Assembly (NCBI GenBank): GCA_951406725.2
Contig: OX597815.1
Coordinates: 168,516,001-168,580,000 of the forward strand
Reading direction: 5' to 3'
Length of the DNA stretch: 64,000 nt
From: Octopus vulgaris
Lineage: Eukaryota
The notes beneath the pieces were generated by a model. The model searched no databases, was not told where the DNA came from, and worked only from the letters and a program-made list of their open reading frames with translations. The position numbers and the translations under genes are program-made. Position 1 is the first letter of the stretch; the number at the start of each line of letters is the position of its first letter. Positions 3,246-57,335 of this stretch are shown here, in pieces.

Positions 3246-3716
3246 ATTTGGCTCAAAAGCAAATAGCAAGGCCATGTAGGGGGACATGGAGTTAAGTACA
3301 GGGTGGTGTTCATGTAAAGAGTTCAGGCCACTCGAGGTCCAGGGAGGCTTTGAACAAAGCGGTCGTCGGCATCTTCACCATCTCGTCTGGCAGCTTGTTC
3401 CACGGATCCGCAACCCGGACGGAGAAAGCTCCTCTCCTTCGATTGAGATGAAATCGTCGCAGGTAGAGCTTTTCGGAATGACCCCGCAGCCGACGCTCTG
3501 GAGCAGGAGTGAAGAACAGCTCTTTCGAGAGGTTACACTTTCCGCTTATGATGTTGTGGGCGAGAATGAGATCACTACGGCGGCGGCGTTTTTCAAGAGA
3601 ATAAAGGTCGAGCGTCCTCAGCCTTTCTTCGTAGGACAAATTTTTGAGACCATGAACCATGCGGGTAGCCAGCTTCTGGACTCTTTCGAGATGCTGTATG
3701 TCTTTGAGGAGATAAG
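3214..3716 (-). mobile_element. CR1-clade LINE, 5'-truncated 3' fragment
   Basis: ORF2 C-terminus ...LERVQKLATRMVHGLKNLSYEERLRTLDLYSLEKRRRRSDLI...RRLRGHSEKL...FSVRVADPWNKLP...FKASLD is typical of CR1. It is followed by a short 3' UTR and a (CTAA)n tail at 3214-3245. Confidence 0.9.
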
Positions 3717-4042
3717 TGTGTGTTAAAAATTAATGCAGATAAAAGATGCATTACTTTCTGACTCACCCTCATAAAATACAGACACAAACACATACACACA
3801 CGCATAAATGACAAGCTCCTGCAGAGTTTCTGCCAATCAAATTCCCTTATAAGGCTTGGTCAGCTCTGGGCTATAGCAAGTGTTGTGAAATGAGATTGAA
3901 CCTAAACCATATGGTTCTGAAGCAAATTTGTTGACCACACAATATTGCCTGCCCTTAAGTCCATTTTATTATGTATGCAATGTTATTGCTTCATATACAA
4001 CTTATACTGATTTGGAATGTTACTATTTTGGATGGCTTAGAG

Positions 4043-6039: not shown

Positions 6040-6343
6040 TGTTGTTTGTTTGTTCCTTCTCGAGCCATGCCTGGCTCATAAGGGCCAGTTTCCCGGTTTC
6101 TTGGTGTATAGGTTCCCCACCTGGACGGGACACCGGTCCATCGCAGGTGAGCTGCAAGATACAGGAGGAAAGAGTGAGAGAAAGTTGTGGCAAAAGAGTC
6201 AGAAGTTTCGCCATTACCTTCTGCCAGAGCCACGTGGAGCTTAGGTGTTTCGCTCATAAACACACACATCGTCCAGTCTGAGATTCGAACCCGCGATCCC
6301 TCGACCGCGAGTTTGCTGCTCTAACCACTAGGCCATGTGCCTC
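6040..6343 (-). mobile_element. tRNA-derived SINE (family C head) with a 19-bp TSD
   Basis: Minus-strand head TGGCCTAGTGG (A box) and GGTTCGAATC (B box), tail (ACAA)n. The TSD CACCTGAACATGTGTATGT is at 6021-6039 and 6344-6362. Confidence 0.9.
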
Positions 6344-7139
6344 CACCTGAACATGTGTATGTGTGTGTAAAACCGAAATAGGATACAAGAAAGAGATAGA
6401 AGGAGAGAAAACAATATCATCATCGTTTTTAACATCATCGTTTCCATGCTTGCCTACATCAGACGGAATTCACTGGGTCCAGTTTGATACCTGTTTTGTT
6501 GCTAACCCTCACTTATTTCCATACATGGTAATATTCTCCCATGTCTAGACATGTTTGCACAGAAAATTGGAAAATAACTGACACAGCTTTTCTGTGAGTG
6601 ACTATCGTGTGATGTCAAGACGAAGAGAGTAAAAGCCATACACACACACACACATATATTCTTTCAGTTTTTACCAAATCCACTCACAAGGATTTAGTTG
6701 GCCCTAGGTACCATGCAGCAGAACTGAACCTGAAACTACATGATAGGGAAGCAAATTTCTCAACCACAACCCCTACACTATATATATATATATATATATG
6801 TACATGTATCCACATACGTTTATATATATATATATATATATATGCACTTATGTATATACAGTATGATTCAGCACAGTTCCTTCCAACCAGATTCCACTTA
6901 CAAGACAATGGACAACTCAAGGCTAAAGCAGAAGACACATGAGGTGTTACAGAGTGGGATTGAACTAGAAACCATGTGGTTGCAAAGTGAATTTCTTGAT
7001 CACAATTGTTATGCCTATACAGTTAGAAATTTTTCAACATTTCATCTTTCACTTCTATTCTGTTATCAAGAAGTGTTGTGTTTATTAGATATCTATGATT
7101 AAAGAAAAATAAAGAACAAATAAAAAAACTTATTCTTAG

Positions 7140-8818: not shown

Positions 8819-9130
8819 GGAGGTGCAATGGCCCAGTGGTTAAGGGCAGCAGACTTGTGGTTGTAGGATCGCGATTTCAATTCCCAGAGCGGGTGTTGTG
8901 AGTGTTTATTGAGCGAAAACACCTAAAAACTCCACGAGGCTCCGGCAGGGGGTGGTGGCGAACCCTGCTGTACTCTTTCACCACAACTTTCTCTCACTCT
9001 TTCTTCTGTTAGCCTGCTCGCTTAGCCAACGGGGTGGCGTCATTTGAAGGCTAAAACAATGCGAAGCACATTGTGACCAGCAATGTGTAGCAACATCTGA
9101 TAGCCTGGTCGGTCATGGTGATCACGGTGA
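8819..9130 (+). mobile_element. tRNA-derived SINE family C
   Basis: GGAGGTGCAATGGCCCAGTGGTTA head, inserted in (TA)n, closely similar to 11106-11393. Confidence 0.85.
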
Positions 9131-9606
9131 TATATATATACACATACACACACACATGTATACAGGCACATACAAACACACACACACACACACACACACA
9201 TACATAGTGGTCTTCTTTCAGCTTTCAGTCTCTGTCTACCAAATCCACTCACAAGGTTTTGGTTGACCATAGGGCTACAGTACAAGACACTTGCATAAAG
9301 AGCTGCACAGCAGGACTGAATTCAATACCACACAGCTGGGAAGCAAGCTTGTTAACCACACAGCAACACCTGCATCTCTTGTAACATATTTACTAACACC
9401 AAATTTTGAAACTGACACTAATTCAAAAGCAATTAAATAACTTTCCATTCCTTTCATCACAGCTTAAACTGAATTAAAAAAATTTACCACATTTCTCACT
9501 TGTGGACTGTTGCTTCCCTATTTACCATTTTCCCCTACAACTTCACAATTACAGTTCTAAGTTCTCAGCCTAACATTATCAATGCTTCGTTTTGATACTG
9601 CATGAA

Positions 9607-10399: not shown

Positions 10400-10532
10400 A
10401 CGGGAAGCTTTATGAAAATAGACAAAAGACGAAGGCAGGTGGAAAACAAATAAACAATTGTATTAGTATGGCGCTCAGGAAATATAAATAAAACAAGTCT
10501 TTAACGTTTTGAGCCTACGCTCTTCAACAGAA

Positions 10533-10535
<3 letters not shown>
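10399..10535 (-). mobile_element. Short Penelope-like terminal fragment in (TA)n with a decayed hammerhead
   Basis: Minus strand 10535-10498: TCTTT-CTGTTGA-A-GAGC(GTAG)GCTC-AAAA-CGTT-AAAGA. G12 is lost, consistent with CpG decay. Same family as about 22280-22460. Confidence 0.6.
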
Positions 10536-10574
<39 letters not shown>

Positions 10575-10578
<4 letters not shown>

Positions 10579-10792
10579 AGGTCCCGGGTTGAGTCGGGGT
10601 TAACCACAGTAAATAAGGTACTCAATACATAGCAGAGTAAATTAATTTATTTTGTAGAAGGAGCTTCTACAGAACTAGAACTGTTTCATTCAAAAGAAAT
10701 CATCAGGAAGCTCTGATACTGCATGATACTGATGAGCTTCCTGATGATTTCTTTTGAATGAAACAGTTCTAGTTCTGTAGAAGCTCCTTCTA

Positions 10793-10799
<7 letters not shown>
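10575..10799. mobile_element. Penelope-like inverted terminal element in (TA)n with two hammerhead ribozymes
   Basis: Perfect 66-bp inverted repeat (10648-10713 / 10734-10799) with a 20-nt spacer. Each arm encodes a type I hammerhead. Confidence 0.75.
10734..10786 (+). ncRNA. Type I hammerhead ribozyme motif (identical copy on the minus strand at 10661-10713)
   Basis: Helix I GAGCTTC/GAAGCTC, core CTGATGA, helix II TTC-TTTT-GAA with a U.U closing mismatch, GAAA, helix III ACAG/CTGT, cleavage triplet GTA. Confidence 0.75.
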
Positions 10800-10841
<42 letters not shown>

Positions 10842-11057: not shown

Positions 11058-11105
<48 letters not shown>

Positions 11106-11106
<1 letters not shown>

Positions 11107-11393
11107 GAGGCGCAATGGCCCAGTGGTTAGAGCAGCAGACTCGTGGTCATAGGATCGCAGTTTCGATTCTCAGACCGAGTGTTTATTGAGCGGAAATGCC
11201 AAAGCTCCACGAGGCTCTCGAAGGGGATGTGGCAATCCCTGCAGTACTCTTTCACCACAACTTTCTCTCACTCTTTCTTCTGTTGGCTTGCTCGCTTAGC
11301 CAGCAGGGTGGCATCATTTGAAGGCTAAAACAATGCGAAGCGCAATGTGACCAGCGATGTGTAGCAACATCTGATAGCCTGGTCGGTCACGGT
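11106..11393 (+). mobile_element. tRNA-derived SINE family C
   Basis: GGAGGCGCAATGGCCCAGTGGTTAGAGCAGCAGACTCGTGGTC...TTTCGATTC head, with TCG in the anticodon-like loop (tRNA-Arg-like). Flanked by (TA)n. Confidence 0.85.
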
Positions 11394-11394
11394 A

Positions 11395-11421
<27 letters not shown>

Positions 11422-11425
<4 letters not shown>

Positions 11426-11567
11426 ATCCAAACAAGAAAACACAACAACGCGAGGACGTGGAACAAATATAGTATTATTGGACGCTCAGGAAAGAAGGGA
11501 AGAAGGAGGGTTTAACGTTTCGAGCGGAGCTCTTCGTCGGAAACATAGGAGAAGGAAAGATCCAGAC
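11422..11567 (-). mobile_element. Short Penelope-like terminal fragment with a minimal hammerhead
   Basis: Minus strand 11544-11510: GTTT-CCGACGA-A-GAGC(TCC)GCTC-GAAA-CGTT-AAAC. It sits between (TA)n and (CATA)n. Confidence 0.7.
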
Positions 11568-16387: not shown

Positions 16388-16765
16388 TCATCATCATCAT
16401 CATCATCATCATCGTTTAGCGTCCGTTTTCCATGCTAGCATGGGTTGGATGGTTCTACTGGGGTCTGTGAAGCCAGAAGGCTTCATCAGGCCCAGTCAAA
16501 TCTGGCAGTGTTTCTACGGCTGGATGCCCTTCCTAACGCCAACCACTCCGTGAGTGTAGTGGGTGCTTTTTACGTGCCACCCGCACAGGTGCCAGACAGA
16601 GCTGGCAAACGGCCATGAACGGATGGTGCTTTTTATGTGCCACCGGCACAAGGGCCAGGCGAGGCTGGCAACGGACACGAAACGGGGCGGTGCTGGCAAC
16701 GGTCGCGAAACGGAAGGTTCTCTGACATGCCACCGGCACTGGTAACACATCTGCAATTTCCATTG
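16388..16765 (-). mobile_element. RTE-LINE 3' UTR fragment with internal ~63-bp repeats
   Basis: (GAT)n tail on the minus strand, the GGTTGGCGTTAGGAAGGGCATCCAGC block, and repeated GTGCCACCGGCAC units. The same UTR is attached to RTE ORF2 at 56471-57335. Confidence 0.8.
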
Positions 16766-22279: not shown

Positions 22280-22460
22280 ATATATATATTCTACACATTC
22301 TTTATTTTCTCTCCTTGTTTGTTTCTGTGTTCATTTCTGTGGAACAGCGTAGGCTCAACACATTAAAGACTTTTTCACTTCCTGAGCATTATACTAATAT
22401 ATCTGTTTGTCGTCTACACCACCTGTCTTCATCTTTTGTTTTTTTCTGAATTCTCCCCCT
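22280..22460 (+). mobile_element. Penelope-like terminal fragment with a degenerate hammerhead
   Basis: TTTCTGTGGAACAGCGTAGGCTCAACACATTAAAGAC (22334-22370) is a decayed version of the motif at 10498-10535, and the downstream CCTGAGC...ATACTAAT...CCACCTG...GTTTT also aligns. It sits between (TA)n and (TG)n. Confidence 0.6.
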
Positions 22461-22894: not shown

Positions 22895-23765
22895 ATCTTT
22901 ACATTCTGAGTTCAAATTCTACTGAAGTCAGCTTTGTCTTTCAGCTGTTTGGGATTGATGAAATAAGTACCAGTTGAACACTGGGGTTGATGCAATCGAC
23001 TAGCCCATTCCCTCAAAATTTTTGGGTCTTGTGCCTAGAGAAGAAAGGGTTATCATCATCATCATCATTATTACTATTATTATTATTATGGTGGCAAGCT
23101 GGCAGAATCATTAGCACACCAGGCAAAATGCTTAGCAGCATCTTACCTGTTTTTATGTTCTGAGTTCAAATTCTGCCAAGGTCAACTTTGCCTTTCAACC
23201 TTTCAGAGTCAATTAAATAAGTACCAGCTACACACTGAGGTCGATGTAATCAACTTACCCCTCCCGCAAAAAAATTTTCAGGCCTTATGCCTATAATAGA
23301 AAGGATTATCATCATCATTATTATTATTAACCCTTTCGTTACCAACCCGGCTGAAACCGGCTCTGGCTCTGAGTACAAATGTCTTGTTTTCAAAAGTTTT
23401 GAATCAAAATCTTCCACCAAACCTCAGTCACAATTAATGTTCCTAACACTTGGTTAATGATAATTAAGTTATTTTACTAAATTCTTTGTTATAATTAAAG
23501 TAACTGAAAGAAACACAGAGCATCTCAAAATAAATACAGTAACGAAAGGGTTAAGGTAGCAAGCTGGCAAAATTGTTAACATGCTGGACAAAATTCTTAG
23601 CAGTTTTTCGCTCGTCCCTACATTCTGAGTTCAAACTCCACTGAGGTCGACTTTGCCTTTCATTCTTTTGGAGTCGATAAAATAAGTACCAGTTGAACAC
23701 TGAGGTTGATGTAATTGACTCATTCCCACCTCTCCCAAGCTGCCCTTGTGGCAAAAATTTGAAAT
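22895..23765 (+). mobile_element. Three head-to-tail SINE family B copies
   Basis: TTCTGAGTTCAAA...ACTTTGCCTTTCA...AAGTACCAG recurs at about 22903, 23158 and 23623, each followed by an (ATC/ATT)n tail. Confidence 0.8.
23331..23550. mobile_element. piggyBac-type MITE
   Basis: TTAA-CCCTTTCGTTAC ... GTAACGAAAGGG-TTAA: perfect 12-bp TIR and TTAA TSD. Confidence 0.85.
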
Positions 23766-26814: not shown

Positions 26815-27906
26815 TCACAATCTTCTGCAATCCTTCTGGATGGTCTTCCTTTTTAAGTTGGTGAATGCTGCCATAATTCTTGCCTTCAGTTCATCTTTAC
26901 CAGGAGTTTTGTTGGTCTCTCACTCAACTGCACCCCACACATAATAATCAAGTGGAGTTGCAGCCTGGAGAGTTAGGTGACCAGATGTTAAGAATGATGT
27001 GGTCGCAGAAATTGTCTGACAGCTATGACTGGGTTCTGCTGCTTGTTTGGCATAGTGCAGAGTCCTGTTGCCAGGCATAGAGTCTTTCAGCAACCACCTT
27101 CTTGACCAGGGCAGCACTACCTCCTCCAGGCACTTGATGTAGGCCTCCGTGTTGAGACTGAGGCCATGTGGGAAGATGAATGGAGGCATAACATTGCCAT
27201 CACTAGTGATCACTCCAAACAACATGATGTTGACTGGATGTTTGATTTTTTATCAGTCTCAGTACATGTTTTGGGGACATGGCAAGCCAACGGTTGTTCT
27301 GTGTTTTCACATCTAATCCTGGCAGAAATTTTTCTCGTCTGAGAAAAACCAAAGCATGTTTAGTTGGAAGGGATGCTTGAGTTTGTTCAAAAGCTTCGTA
27401 ATGTGGTCTTTCCTTTCGTCCTTGATGGCGTGGGATAAAAATTGGCCCTTTCTCATCTTGTATGAGGAATACCAAATATTTTCATGTACTCAGACACACC
27501 CATGTCTTTGGAGATGGACCTGATTGACTTAGAGGGATCATTGTCAATCATGGTCTGGATCTCATCAACAAATTCAGGAGTTCTTTTCTTATCAGAACGA
27601 TCAGAGTGAGTTTTCCAAATTACCGTACCTTCACAAACACCATTAGATTCATTCACTGCAATGTCCTCAGTTTGACACCCAAACTCTCTGAAATGTTTGT
27701 ATTGAAGTTTCCAGCATGAATGCCATGCAGTACAGCATGTCGTTTCCAAATTTCTGGCAGAGCGAATTGCGTCATGGTGCTGTTTTTCTCATAGACAGTG
27801 CCCAACTGACCCTACTATACTGTGTAGTTGACAAAATCAAAAACAAACAATGCACATGCAGGAAATTAAAAATATAAAATGGCAACAATTTATCCATTAT
27901 ACCCTA
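26815..27906 (-). mobile_element. Degenerate Tc1/mariner transposon, DD37D (maT-like)
   Basis: Frameshifted transposase: FGVITSDGNVMPPFIFPHGL.LNTEAYIKCLEEVVLPW...WQQDSA...IWSPNSPGCN(P)LDYYVWGAVE. There are 37 residues between the last two Asp after correcting a 1-nt insertion. The 5' end is near 27906 and the 3' TIR was not seen. Confidence 0.8.
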
Positions 27907-30094: not shown

Positions 30095-32365
<2,271 letters not shown>

Positions 32366-36234: not shown

Positions 36235-37282
36235 TACTCACATATATATATGTATGAATACAACGTACATACATTTCCAACATTAAGCACACACACTGCA
36301 GTGTGTAACATTCCAGTTTCCATGGTAATCATATTATAATGTGTTCTCTCTCAGTCAATGCTTTAATTGGAACAACTGACAAGAAATCAACTTTTTCTAC
36401 ACCAGTAATTACCATAAATTTGATAGTAATGTCACAACAGATCCATACCACCTCTGCTGTGTAATTAGAAAGTCTATTGCCATCACAATTGTCAATAGAA
36501 TACTAGGCATATTATTTCTTGCATAGTTTCCAACGCTAATAATGCAATTTTATTTTCTGACATTATTGATTCATTTCAAAACTATGTGGTTTTGATTATA
36601 CTTTTGGTTTTTTTTATGGAAATAATAGCACAGCTTTGTAACAATTTGCATCACTGACTTGCTATAAATTAGCCTTTGTTTTATCTATATTCACCATGTA
36701 GACACAGAACTTGCAATAAATTAGCTTTTCTTTTCATGTATATTCTTCATGTAGAATCATAGAGAACACTAACCAATTAACCAACTAACAAATGTGAAAG
36801 TTTCTGTATAGACATTCAGCTTGCTAACATGACAGCTAGACCTCTTTTAACAAATTTGCTACTTTTTAAATACATATCATGCATTTTTGTCCTAGATTTT
36901 AAGATAGTATTCCTCAAAAATATACAAGATTATCATATCAAAAACGTTGCTGAAAAAAAACATTTGGCATAAACTGGGCAATTTATGCCTGTTCAAATTA
37001 CAACTAATCTTTGTAATAAGATCTGTTTCACAATGGAGTAAGTACAACATATTTAGTGCAGTGGACCTGCAAGTCACACCAAATAGATCTGATCCAACAC
37101 AACTCACACACATGACTAAACCAGATATGTGGAGAGATATGTCAGTGAGTTCCAAATTATGTCATAAGCAACGCTTCATTATCATTAACCCTTTTGTTAT
37201 CATATTTCTATTGAAATACACTTACCTTTGTTTCAATTAACTTTTAAAATAACAAATAATTTAGTAAAATAACTTTTTTGTT

Positions 37283-37697
37283 CAGTTCTATATTTTAGAG
37301 ATGAGGAATTATGTACATTATTTACATTCGATGGATATTTGTCCTCATCTTGTTTGTTGTTAACACAACGTTTCGGCTGATATACCCTCCAGCCTTCTTC
37401 AGGTGTCTTGGGAAAATTTCGAACCTGGGTTCTCATTCCTAAGGTATTTTTCAATGTTATTATTGGGCATATGGCATAGTGGTTAAGAGCACGGGCTACT
37501 AACCCCAAAATTCCAAGTTCGATTCCAAGCAGTGACCTGAACAATAATAATAATAACATCGAAGAATACCTTAGGAATAAGAACCCAGGTTCGAAATTTC
37601 CCCAAAACACCTGAAGAAGGCTAGAGGGTATATCAGCCAAAATGTTGTGTTAACAACAAACAAGATGAGGACAAATATCTGTTGAATGTAAATAATG
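37283..37697 (+). mobile_element. tRNA-headed element flanked by inverted hammerhead-bearing Penelope-like arms
   Basis: 149-bp inverted arms (37316-37464 / 37549-37697), a central tRNA-like segment at 37465-37537 with A and B boxes, and a 12-bp TSD AACT(T/C)TTTTGTT (37271-37282 / 37698-37709). Confidence 0.8.
37363..37406 (-). ncRNA. Minimal type I hammerhead ribozyme motif
   Basis: ACAC-CTGAAGA-A-GGCTG(GAGGGTATAT)CAGCC-GAAA-CGTT-GTGT: intact core with palindromic AACGTT in place of helix III. The plus-strand partner at 37607-37650 has CpG-type changes (CCGAAACG to CCAAAATG). Confidence 0.75.
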
Positions 37698-37851
37698 AAC
37701 TCTTTTGTTATTAAACCAGTGTTTGGAACAAATTAACATACAATTTTGAAAGAAGATTTAATTCAGACCCCTTTAAAACAAGAAGATTGTGTCATAGAAC
37801 CAGGAACAGTCTCAAGCAGATTGTTTATTGCTTAACTCTTTTATATAAAAA

Positions 37852-44999: not shown

Positions 45000-45325
45000 T
45001 TGGGTCATCCCATAAATAATGTGGATTTTTTTCAATTGCATGAAGTCAGAGGGGGATGAGGTAAACTACCTGCATCAACTTGCCATAAAAGCAGGTAGTA
45101 ATTTTACCTTGTCCTTATTCTTAGTGCAGTTTGATTTTAACAGTTATTTTTTCAAAGCTATAATGGAAGTGACAAAGGAGCATATTCAACATATTTTGCT
45201 TTATGAGTTCAACAAACATAACAAGGCAATGAAAAGTGTGAGAAATATTAATGCAGTATATGAGGATCGGACAATAATCATAAGCCAGTGTCAACAGTGG
45301 TTTCAGTGATTCTGAGCCAGAAACT
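45000..45325 (+). mobile_element. Mariner 5' fragment
   Basis: TA-TTGGGTCATCCCATAAATAATG left end and a mariner HTH N-terminus MEVTKEHIQHILLYEFNK...SVRNINAVYEDRTI..SQCQQWF. Confidence 0.75.
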
Positions 45326-52435: not shown

Positions 52436-53678
52436 CAGGGGTTGGACAAAATAATGGAAACACCTAGCATCATAGTATCATAATTTTGAAATATTTATAA
52501 AACCGTCAAAAGTTTGTTTATCTTTATGTTTTTTTTATTTATTATTAGTGTTGCTTGATATGTTTTGCTAAAATTGGTGTTTCATTTCAGATAGCATCAG
52601 AAAAGGGTAATTAAAATTCATTAAAATGACAGATCTATCAGACTTTCAAAGAGGTCAAATTGTTTGTGCTCATATGGCAGGTGCTAGCATAACGAAAACA
52701 GCCAAACAGTATAAAGAAGTACTGTCTCGAAAGTAATGGCAGCCTTTAAGAAAGAGAGAAAAACCTCCTCATCGAAACAAAACTCAGGAAGAAAACCAAG
52801 ACTTTCAAATAGGGACCATCGAACTCTTACGCAAATTGTTAGAAAGGATCACAAAAGTACATCTCCCAAAATCACTGCAGAGCTTAATGAGTACCTCGAG
52901 AACCCAGTTTTCACAAAAACTGTTCACCGGTAACTGCACAAAACCAGATTTCAAGGGAGGGCTGCAATCAGAGAACCACTACTTTCAAAAACAAACATTG
53001 CAAAGCATTTAGAGTAGAGTAAGAAACTACAGAATTGGTCCCAAGAGCAGTGGAAGAATGTTATTTTCTCAGACAAGTCAACCTTTATCTTATTTCCGAC
53101 CACCGGCCAAGTATACAAGTGGAGACAGCCAAAAGAAGCAGTTGACCCAGACTGTCTTCTTCCAACTGTTAAACATGGAGGAGGATCTGTGTGATAATTT
53201 GAGGGTGGGGGGGTATATCTTGGAAATCTACTGGCCCAATGATTTCCCTTCATTTTATCTGATCAAATTCATCCTGTGGTTGCAGAACTGTTTCCGGAAG
53301 GAAACACAGTCTTTCAGGATGCTTAAGCACCAATTCACACAGCTAAAGTTGTTACTGAAAGGCACAAGGAAAATTCTAGTGAAGTTGGACATCTTATCTG
53401 GCCACCACAGTCCCCAGATTTCAATATTATTGAACATTTATGGTGCTTTTTAGAAAAACTAGTGAGAAGTCGATATCCTCCACCATCACCACTACAAGAA
53501 CTGGAGACTGTTTTAGCTGAAGAATGAACAAAAATTCCCTTGGAAACAATTCAAACTTTGTACGAGTCCATACCTCAGAGAATTCCAGCTGTAATCACTG
53601 TCAAAGGCAGTCCTACCCCATATTAAAATAAATTTGTTTGGAATTTTAAGGTGTTTCCATTATTTTGTCCAACCCCTG
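52436..53678 (+). mobile_element. Tc1-family transposon (DD36E, Incomer-like) with both ends and a disrupted transposase
   Basis: Perfect 30-bp TIRs CAGGGGTTGGACAAAATAATGGAAACACCT and TA TSD. Pseudo-ORF 52626-53626: MTDLSDFQRGQIV...VIFSDKSTF...FQDA*APIHTA...WPPQSPDFNIIEHLW...PTPY*. Confidence 0.9.
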
Positions 53679-56470: not shown

Positions 56471-57335
56471 CATCATCATTGTTTAACATCCGTTTTCCAT
56501 GCTGGCATGGGCTGGACAGTTTGACTGAGGTCTGGAGAGCCAGCAGCTGCACCAGCCTCTAATCTGATCTGGCAAGGTTTCTACAGCTGGATGCCTTTCC
56601 TAACGCCAACCACTCCAAGAGTGTAGTGGGTGGTTTTTATGTTCCATTGGCACAGGGGCCAGTTAGGCAAGCCTGGTATCGATCACATTCAGATTGTGCT
56701 TTTTATGTGCCACTGGCATGAGAGCCAGTCAGTGGGTACTGGCATCAGCTATGTTTGGATGGAGCTTTTTACATACCACCAGCATGGGAGCCAGTCAGGC
56801 AGATCTGGCATCGACCATGTTCAGATGGTGCTTTTAAGTACCACTGGCACAGGAGCCAGTCAAGGGCACTGGCCACAGCTACGATATTGGTTTTAATTGA
56901 CTCAACAGGTCTTCTTAAGCATATCATATCGCCCAATGCATCAGAGGTAATCTTAACTGGGCTAGACATGTGTGGCTGCAATCTCACTTTAGTCACTAGG
57001 TCTTCTCAATCACAGCATATCTCCAAAGGTCTCTGTGAGGCCCAATGTTTGAAGGCCATGCTTCACCACTTCATCCCATGTTTTCCTGGGTCTATCTCTT
57101 CCACAGGTTCCTTCCACAGTTAGGGAGTGGCACTTCCTCATGCAACTGTCCTCATCATACATAACATATGACCATACCAGCGCAGTCGTCTCTCTTGCAC
57201 AACACATTTGATGCTTCTTATGCCCAACTTTTCTCGCAGAGCACTTACACTCTGTCCAGTATGCACACTGACATTACACATCCAGCAGATCATACTATCT
57301 TCATTTCTTTCAAGCCTACACATGTCCTCAGCAGT
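56471..57335 (-). mobile_element. RTE-clade LINE, ORF2 C-terminus plus 3' UTR
   Basis: RLERNEDSMICWMCNV...ALREKLGIRSIKCVVQERRLRWYGH...CHSLTVEGTCGRDRPRKTWDEVVK, followed by a UTR with ~63-bp units and a (GAT)n tail. Confidence 0.88.

Follow-up and report, generated by a model that had tools for sequence, protein, structure and literature searches.

The locus and its surroundings

The analysed window is a stretch of 64,000 nucleotides of Octopus vulgaris DNA (assembly GCA_951406725.2, contig OX597815.1, positions 168,516,001 to 168,580,000), and all coordinates given here are positions within it. It contains a compact element (10575-10799), flanked on each side by a (TA)n run, in which two copies of a hammerhead ribozyme (HHR) motif lie head to head on opposite strands (Table 1). 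The two arms of this element are exact reverse complements at 66 of 66 positions across a 20-nt spacer, just as the first-pass annotation had described them, and pairing is lost at the very next base on the inner and the outer side alike; between 9 and 13 kb of the window, no longer inverted repeat is present. The pair had also been described as lying inside a (TA)n array, which holds insofar as TA runs are found on both sides, but the left arm stops 73 nt short of its run (10575-10647). The element is asymmetric in this respect: the plus-strand copy ends at its TA run, and the minus-strand copy continues for another 73 nt beyond the corresponding position. The last ATA of the right arm is common to the right run. 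An AATAAA at 10646-10651 (minus strand) spans the border of the extension and the left arm, and a stem-loop with an A/C-rich loop is predicted at the very 3' end of the extension, of which no second copy was found elsewhere in the window. Outside the two TA runs, the flanks are unrelated to each other.

Table 1. Features of the inverted hammerhead element and of the neighbouring gene (positions within the window)
Feature	Position	Strand	Remarks
Left (TA)n run	10535..10574	.	20 units; likely target site
73-nt 3' extension, left copy only	10575..10647	-	tail-like; putative role
Left arm, 66 nt	10648..10713	-	ribozyme sense on minus strand
Type I hammerhead motif, left	10661..10713	-	predicted cut between 10668 and 10667
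Central junction, 20 nt	10714..10733	.	8-nt direct repeat at period 10, and 7-nt word 10729-10735
Right arm, exact inverted copy	10734..10799	+	ends 20 nt past cut site
Type I hammerhead motif, right	10734..10786	+	predicted cut 10779/10780
Local hairpin, 8 bp, competing with helices I and III	10776..10794	+	mirror copy 10653-10671 (-)
Right (TA)n run	10797..10839	.	21.5 units
SAPCD2 first coding exon, about 400 codons	62356-61156	-	Pfam, tblastn

The only gene assigned in Table 1 lies close to the right end of the window, where a minus-strand open reading frame (ORF; 62356-61154) carries a Pfam SAPC2_N domain. Over its first 200 residues, the ORF shares 98% identity with an Octopus bimaculoides protein and 75% with one of Argonauta hians; the closest database entry bears an uninformative low-complexity name. 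In a tblastn comparison, residues 1-401 of the 605-aa O. bimaculoides protein matched the ORF at 97.5%, the match ending at a GT donor (61155-61154), and residues 402-605 had no match in the window beyond one exact 6-mer on the wrong strand. Since the rest of SAPCD2 is absent from the window, an intron of more than 61 kb is implied; because no later SAPCD2 exon occurs in the window, and assuming a correct assembly, positions 1-61155 probably represent SAPCD2 intron 1, which would place the element in the minus-strand pre-mRNA. ARAGORN returned no tRNA gene, and a bacterial promoter scan, a method inapplicable to an animal genome, returned nothing.

The window also holds copies of a tRNA-like SINE family at 11104-11395, 8819-9119 and 6165-6346, which are 76-86% identical to the first of them, the copy at 11104-11395 sitting between two TA runs. 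Furthermore, a 1.4-kb (TA)n array of about 700 units is located at 30099-31503, and tandem arrays with units of 55-66 nt, which look mutually related, at 31673-31927, 32159-32268, 16562-16681 and 56688-56881. Remnants of Tc1/mariner transposases (45016-45306 and 52715-53524) matched Pfam HTH_48 and DDE_3 above the cut-off; two further regions, a transposase-like one (26923-27788) and one resembling the end of a LINE protein (3313-3729), were recognised by eye and had no Pfam match. An imperfect palindrome at 53733-53845 matches itself at 74% over 113 nt.

Composition of the hammerhead motif

Positions are given in the customary hammerhead numbering. In the right motif, helix I consists of 7 bp (10734-10740 with 10780-10786), followed by the first core box CUGAUGA (10741-10747), a helix II of three pairs (10749-10751 with 10756-10758) closed by a U·U (10748, 10759), GAAA at 10760-10763, and a helix III of 4 bp (10763-10766 with 10775-10778), composed of A15.1-U16.1 and three further pairs, with an 8-nt loop; in both arms GUA directly precedes the predicted cut site. 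The conserved type I core (C3 U4 G5 A6 N7 G8 A9, G12 A13 A14, A15.1-U16.1 and H17) is present, and the arrangement of the three helices around it (7, 3 and 4 pairs), with helix I open, is that of type I topology. The first-pass annotation had called both hammerheads complete: this is true of the core, which is intact in both arms, but in both motifs helix II has U·U in place of the G10.1-C11.1 pair that is conserved in hammerheads, according to PMC4209133. A U·U variant of the helix II base gave 22% cleavage in one hour in the experiments described in PMC7229834, and an axolotl motif with U·U at the same place is described there as cleaving weakly as a monomer, while GUA is listed as a natural, active cleavage triplet in PMC1636495.

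The motif additionally departs from the metazoan PLE (Penelope-like) minimal-HHR consensus by its short helix II and its real 4-bp helix III. The rule for that class is a helix III that is absent or reduced to a palindrome; the octopus motif has a stem here, but the segment is nearly self-complementary and predicted to dimerise. The extra nucleotide after A9, followed by a long, G-C-closed helix II, which characterises that class, is absent here. When helix I was inspected by eye for a continuation beyond an internal loop, at most three further pairs were seen, and the ATGs within the motif reach stops in at most 5 codons, as read from the sequence.

The likelihood of such a motif arising by chance was assessed with a hammerhead descriptor at three stringencies, applied to the real window and to 300 dinucleotide shuffles. 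The real window gave two matches, a single event with its copy, against 0/300 shuffles at the two stricter settings and 4/300 at the loosest, and the motif is far beyond chance. The Rfam Hammerhead_1 search that had been proposed as a check produced no match up to an E of 10, whether with the window, the element or the right arm alone; Hammerhead_3 gave 12 bits (E 3.1), below its gathering score of 48.5. Other Rfam matches, to miRNA models, were all below threshold and were dismissed as generic hairpin scores. In bacterial and archaeal genomes the full motif pattern had no match; a shorter pattern occurred at 9 loci against about 2.4 expected by chance under uniform base composition, and these were dismissed as chance because none of the 9 has the full 3' strand of helix I. 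Judged by its sequence, with U·U for G10.1-C11.1 and no score under Hammerhead_1, the motif appears to be a weak one.

Predicted RNA folding and mutual masking

In equilibrium estimates that leave out Mg2+, tertiary contacts, proteins and kinetic traps, as do all folding figures given here, the active fold is predicted to account for a share of 0.096 of the isolated 53-mer 10734-10786. It is placed at -10.8 kcal/mol, 0.3 above the predicted minimum, and in the lowest-energy fold the 5' strand of helix II is predicted to pair with the GAA of the core. The first-pass annotation had suggested that cleavage could be masked both by a competing local hairpin and by the 66-bp duplex, and the predictions bear out each of these. 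The hairpin comprises 8 bp (10776-10783 with 10787-10794), and the predicted active share remains at about 0.09 up to 10792 and, with completion of the hairpin, decreases successively to 0.025, 0.0013 and 4.6e-4, the folding window being predicted to shut about 7 nt after completion of helix I. With the duplex, in read-through RNA, the predicted active share is 1e-43 to 1e-54.

It had also been proposed that co-transcriptional folding might allow cleavage in a long transcript, a proposal that the orientation of the arms does not support. As the arms lie head to head, the antisense arm is transcribed before the ribozyme on either strand, and co-transcriptional folding would therefore oppose cleavage. 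Capture of the 5' strand of helix I by the antisense arm is predicted with a probability of 0.62 at 10740 and 0.998 at 10742, and thus falls within about 9 nt of the synthesis of that strand. The ribozyme could consequently be formable, according to these models, only in RNA starting inside the 20-nt spacer or in the RNA of the parent element. The whole element is predicted to fold at -127 kcal/mol (z = -23), and none of 200 shuffles was equally stable.

The helix III segment is nearly self-complementary, with a predicted -15.6 kcal/mol for the dimer against -2.7 kcal/mol per monomer, and such pairing would be as expected of metazoan hammerheads that act as dimers. The two arms cannot be dimer partners in one RNA because they are on opposite strands. 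In the parent element, the motif was probably a weak, dimer- or protein-assisted ribozyme, restrained by the local hairpin; at the present locus, the models suggest that the two ribozymes are most likely passengers that mask each other in read-through RNA. Such RNA, most likely the SAPCD2 pre-mRNA (minus strand), would form a perfect 66-bp duplex and would stay uncleaved.

A second head-to-head pair and further hammerhead remnants

A head-to-head HHR pair of a different family occupies 37283-37702, its arms (37313-37463 and 37550-37700) being identical at 139 of 151 positions and each carrying a minimal hammerhead core. This second pair interrupts a MITE-like element (37187-37823) with short terminal inverted repeats. 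Read against an uninterrupted MITE-like relative (23329-23552), it proves to have a target duplication of 7 bp (37276-37282 and 37703-37709) and, confined to the left arm, a tail of 30 nt; at the 66-bp pair, a target duplication is unreadable because the insertion sits in a microsatellite. The 86-nt centre of the second pair resembles, on the plus strand, the head of a tRNA-derived SINE, with A- and B-box-like words (recognised by eye) followed by AAT repeats, and it matches the SINE head at 6317-6341 at 23 of 26 positions. From its sequence, the second pair may represent a SINE, combining a tRNA-derived head and a PLE-type 3' end, that was mobilised by a PLE enzyme; hammerhead-bearing SINEs are known from Schistosoma (PMC6765202).

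Three related remnants resembling minimal hammerheads, which belong to families other than that of the 66-bp pair, were also noted, at 10400-10535 (-), 11421-11560 (-) and 22334-22445 (+). The one near 11540 has a C at position 4 of the first box, and those near 10530 and 22340 are more degenerate. Two of the three lie within 1 kb of the 66-bp pair and flank it in neighbouring TA runs, which indicates that this stretch took several ribozyme-bearing insertions.

Origin of the insertion

The element is best read as a young, 5'-truncated PLE pLTR insertion into (TA)n, in which both hammerheads likely derive from one event and are predicted to silence each other, a reading to which we assign a probability of roughly 0.7. 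PLE parentage is suggested by the layout, which matches published PLE insertions. According to Craig 2021 (PMC8557442), such insertions often carry an inverted 5'-truncated copy beside the pLTR, have a tail of 30-40 bp at one end only, contain hammerheads within their pLTRs and, in several PLE clades, use (TA)n targets. The head-to-head arrangement is given as the most frequent one for PLEs by Arkhipova 2013 (PMC3846280), where self-priming was proposed, and pairs of minimal HHRs that lie on opposite strands, separated by 100-700 bp, were ascribed by Cervera and de la Peña 2014 (PMC4209133) to probable truncated PLEs. In O. vulgaris, 31 recently active Penelope-like families are reported in PMC13282606. 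At the present locus, the predicted cut site is located 93 nt from the long end, placing the HHR near the 3' end of a terminal repeat, an inverted truncated copy lies head to head with a one-sided extension, and the target is (TA)n or AT-rich; the extension of 73 nt exceeds the usual 30-40. The suggestion of a young, short PLE-derived element, made in the first-pass annotation, agrees with this layout and with the presence of a second such pair in the window. Further copies of the element family were sought in the window by blastn and nhmmer and none was found. A Pfam scan of ORFs of at least 65 aa, covering 150 of the 173 in the window, gave no RT or GIY-YIG match; the remaining 23 fell in tandem repeats, in alternative frames across the SAPCD2 exon and in a small number of overlapping frames. 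Six motifs of the element had no match in the part of the Craig 2021 supplement with which they were compared.

Comparison with the systems described in these sources refines the placement. The inverted pLTRs of EN-bearing PLEs (Neptune, Nematis, Hydra and Penelope/Poseidon; PMC8557442, PMC3846280) share with the octopus locus the head-to-head ends, the one-sided extension, the hammerhead near the 3' end and the (TA)n or AT-rich target, but the octopus locus has no ORF, its arms are 66 nt long, its extension is 73 nt rather than 30-40 nt, and it is not assignable to a clade. Naiads have the same layout and target but are described as lacking canonical HHRs. With the metazoan PLE minimal HHRs described in PMC4209133 the locus has in common the type I topology, the full core, dual motifs on opposite strands, a self-complementary centre of the helix III loop and weak predicted activity; it differs in its 7-bp helix I, its short helix II and its 4-bp helix III with an 8-nt loop, and its cores, whose 5' starts are separated by about 35 nt, are nearer to each other than the 100-700 bp reported there. 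In the Poseidon PAc element of Anolis carolinensis, as described in PMC11167929, the target is likewise AT-rich and reverse transcription starts internally in an AC-rich stem-loop 85-92 nt past the HHR cut; the 3' end of the octopus locus lies 93 nt past the cut with a predicted A/C-rich stem-loop, a likeness that is one coincidence rather than a test. The PAc HHR is reported in the same source to be inactive without protein, and the PAc ORF starts in stem II, unlike the motif ATGs of the octopus locus with their early stops.

Two routes can be envisaged by which a PLE enzyme would have generated the pair. In the first, a PLE endonuclease/reverse transcriptase, supplied in trans from elsewhere, would nick the TA run and copy approximately 150 nt at the end of the element RNA, starting at the 3' end (10575) and passing through the ribozyme into the spacer; the cDNA would then slip, fold back and be extended by 66 nt as an exact mirror copy, which would finally be joined to the other TA end via the shared ATA. 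This sequence of slippage, fold-back, mirror extension and ATA joining is given about even odds. It is favoured because the short arm is wholly nested in the long copy, no more than 20 nt separate the inner ends, and slippage repeats are found at the junction. The spacer contains an 8-nt direct repeat at a period of 10, seen in 42 of 100000 base shuffles, and the first core box recurs at the junction as a 7-nt word (10729-10735), which 679 of 100000 spacer shuffles reproduced, both tests having been chosen after the sequence was seen; these repeats are likely, on sequence grounds, to be traces of template slippage. The spacer also matches 9593-9605 over 13 nt, which is taken as chance.

The main alternative to fold-back is a PLE origin by two separate primings, in which both ends of the cut TA run would prime reverse transcription at different internal sites and the cDNAs would be end-joined in the middle of the element. 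The anole PLE protein is described as cutting and extending both strands and as starting at two internal sites of the RNA, which would explain tails (PMC11167929), and the junction repeats are also compatible with templated end-joining. Moreover, two primings are what the second pair needs, with its tail on one arm and its head on the other; as its arms each have unique sequence, fold-back would not be the sole route in the O. vulgaris genome, and the second pair appears better explained in this way. For the 66-bp pair, however, this route requires two independent truncations that halted at most 20 nt apart, and the short arm begins 73 nt inside the long end, a distance exceeding the 30-40 nt that separate published start sites. 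We consider it a tentative alternative, less probable than fold-back.

The arms would be identical at the start by either route, and gene conversion, to which the first-pass annotation had appealed as an alternative to youth, therefore need not be invoked, one insertion event already yielding identical arms. With no difference at 66 sites, any divergence since the insertion is limited to less than about 4.4%, and had the arms diverged as far as those of the second pair, such identity would have a probability of 0.004; the insertion thus appears from its sequence to be young.

It is rather unlikely that the source was a non-LTR retrozyme or a hammerhead-bearing SINE, inverted by the same route, instead of the pLTR of a coding PLE. 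No ORF is linked to the element. The axolotl retrozyme motif HHR_Amex2 resembles the octopus motif in having a real, formed helix III and U·U at the base of helix II, and mussel retrozyme HHRs are described as lacking the usual tertiary contacts (PMC7229834), just as no loop 1-loop 2 contacts are evident here. Against such a source, retrozymes are by definition tandem repeats of about 200-400 nt (bioRxiv 10.64898/2026.07.22.740005; PMC7229834), with at least two direct units each carrying an HHR, and the octopus locus has no tandem monomers, its copies being inverted rather than direct; because of this inversion, no circular RNA could be excised between the two motifs. Additionally, PLEs are described as forming inverted pairs in (TA)n that bear a tail on one side (PMC8557442), and animal retrozymes have themselves been argued to be PLE derivatives (bioRxiv 10.64898/2026.07.22.740005).

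More improbable still is an assembly or library artefact, in which a fold-back chimera beside the TA microsatellite would have made the mirror copy. Perfect identity and (TA)n on both sides, as seen at the locus, are typical of error-prone regions. The mirror, however, ends after 66 nt with unrelated flanks past the TA runs, the spacer is not a plain mirror point, and a diverged pair of the same geometry, with a target duplication, is present in the window.

There is similarly very little to recommend a selected bidirectional ribozyme switch, kept identical by gene conversion and cleaving the transcripts of either strand under some conditions. The core nucleotides are all intact in both arms, the cleavage triplet GUA is a natural one (PMC1636495), and the identity of the arms, at the probability of 0.004 given above, means that they are either younger than the second pair or homogenised; but youth suffices to explain that identity, the antisense arm comes first on both strands with a predicted active share of about 1e-43, and an intronic ribozyme that cleaved in sense orientation would more likely harm the host. 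The least probable proposal is a MITE whose terminal repeats happen to contain a hammerhead-like motif, since the repeats do not form both ends of the element, a further 73 nt being present beyond the left arm, and the motif is far beyond chance, even though the element is short with long inverted repeats and a TA target, and Tc1/mariner remnants and MITE-like elements are present in the window.

Implications

The layout as such, including two hammerheads on opposite strands, is already published for PLEs. What is new, though small, is an octopus hammerhead variant that is unscored by Rfam, in which helix II contains U·U, helix III is close to a palindrome and a downstream hairpin covers the cut site. 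Among the sources returned by the literature search, no paper was devoted to octopus hammerheads. As a young PLE insertion, the locus offers a compact and very young example for the question of how PLE inversions originate, by fold-back or by two primings, the answer to which needs many copies.

If intronic, the element would furthermore be a clean candidate ADAR substrate, and the models make it likely that its 66-bp duplex, with 43 adenosines in the arms, is a candidate for editing. Octopus is reported to have an exceptionally high hyper-editing signal, lizard Penelope repeats are reported as heavily edited, and the edited palindromic repeats described there (Xenopus Harbinger, lizard Penelope) fold on themselves into a near-perfect duplex (PMC5625713), as predicted for the octopus locus. 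A more speculative possibility, which we regard as doubtful, is that the inverted layout is self-silencing, such that intronic PLE ribozymes are retained when a mirror copy and a hairpin block cutting of the pre-mRNA, the hairpins making up a sizeable share of the dsRNA edited by octopus ADAR. If this were true, editing could loosen the duplex, and intact single ribozymes on the sense strand would be depleted from introns, whereas inverted pairs would not.
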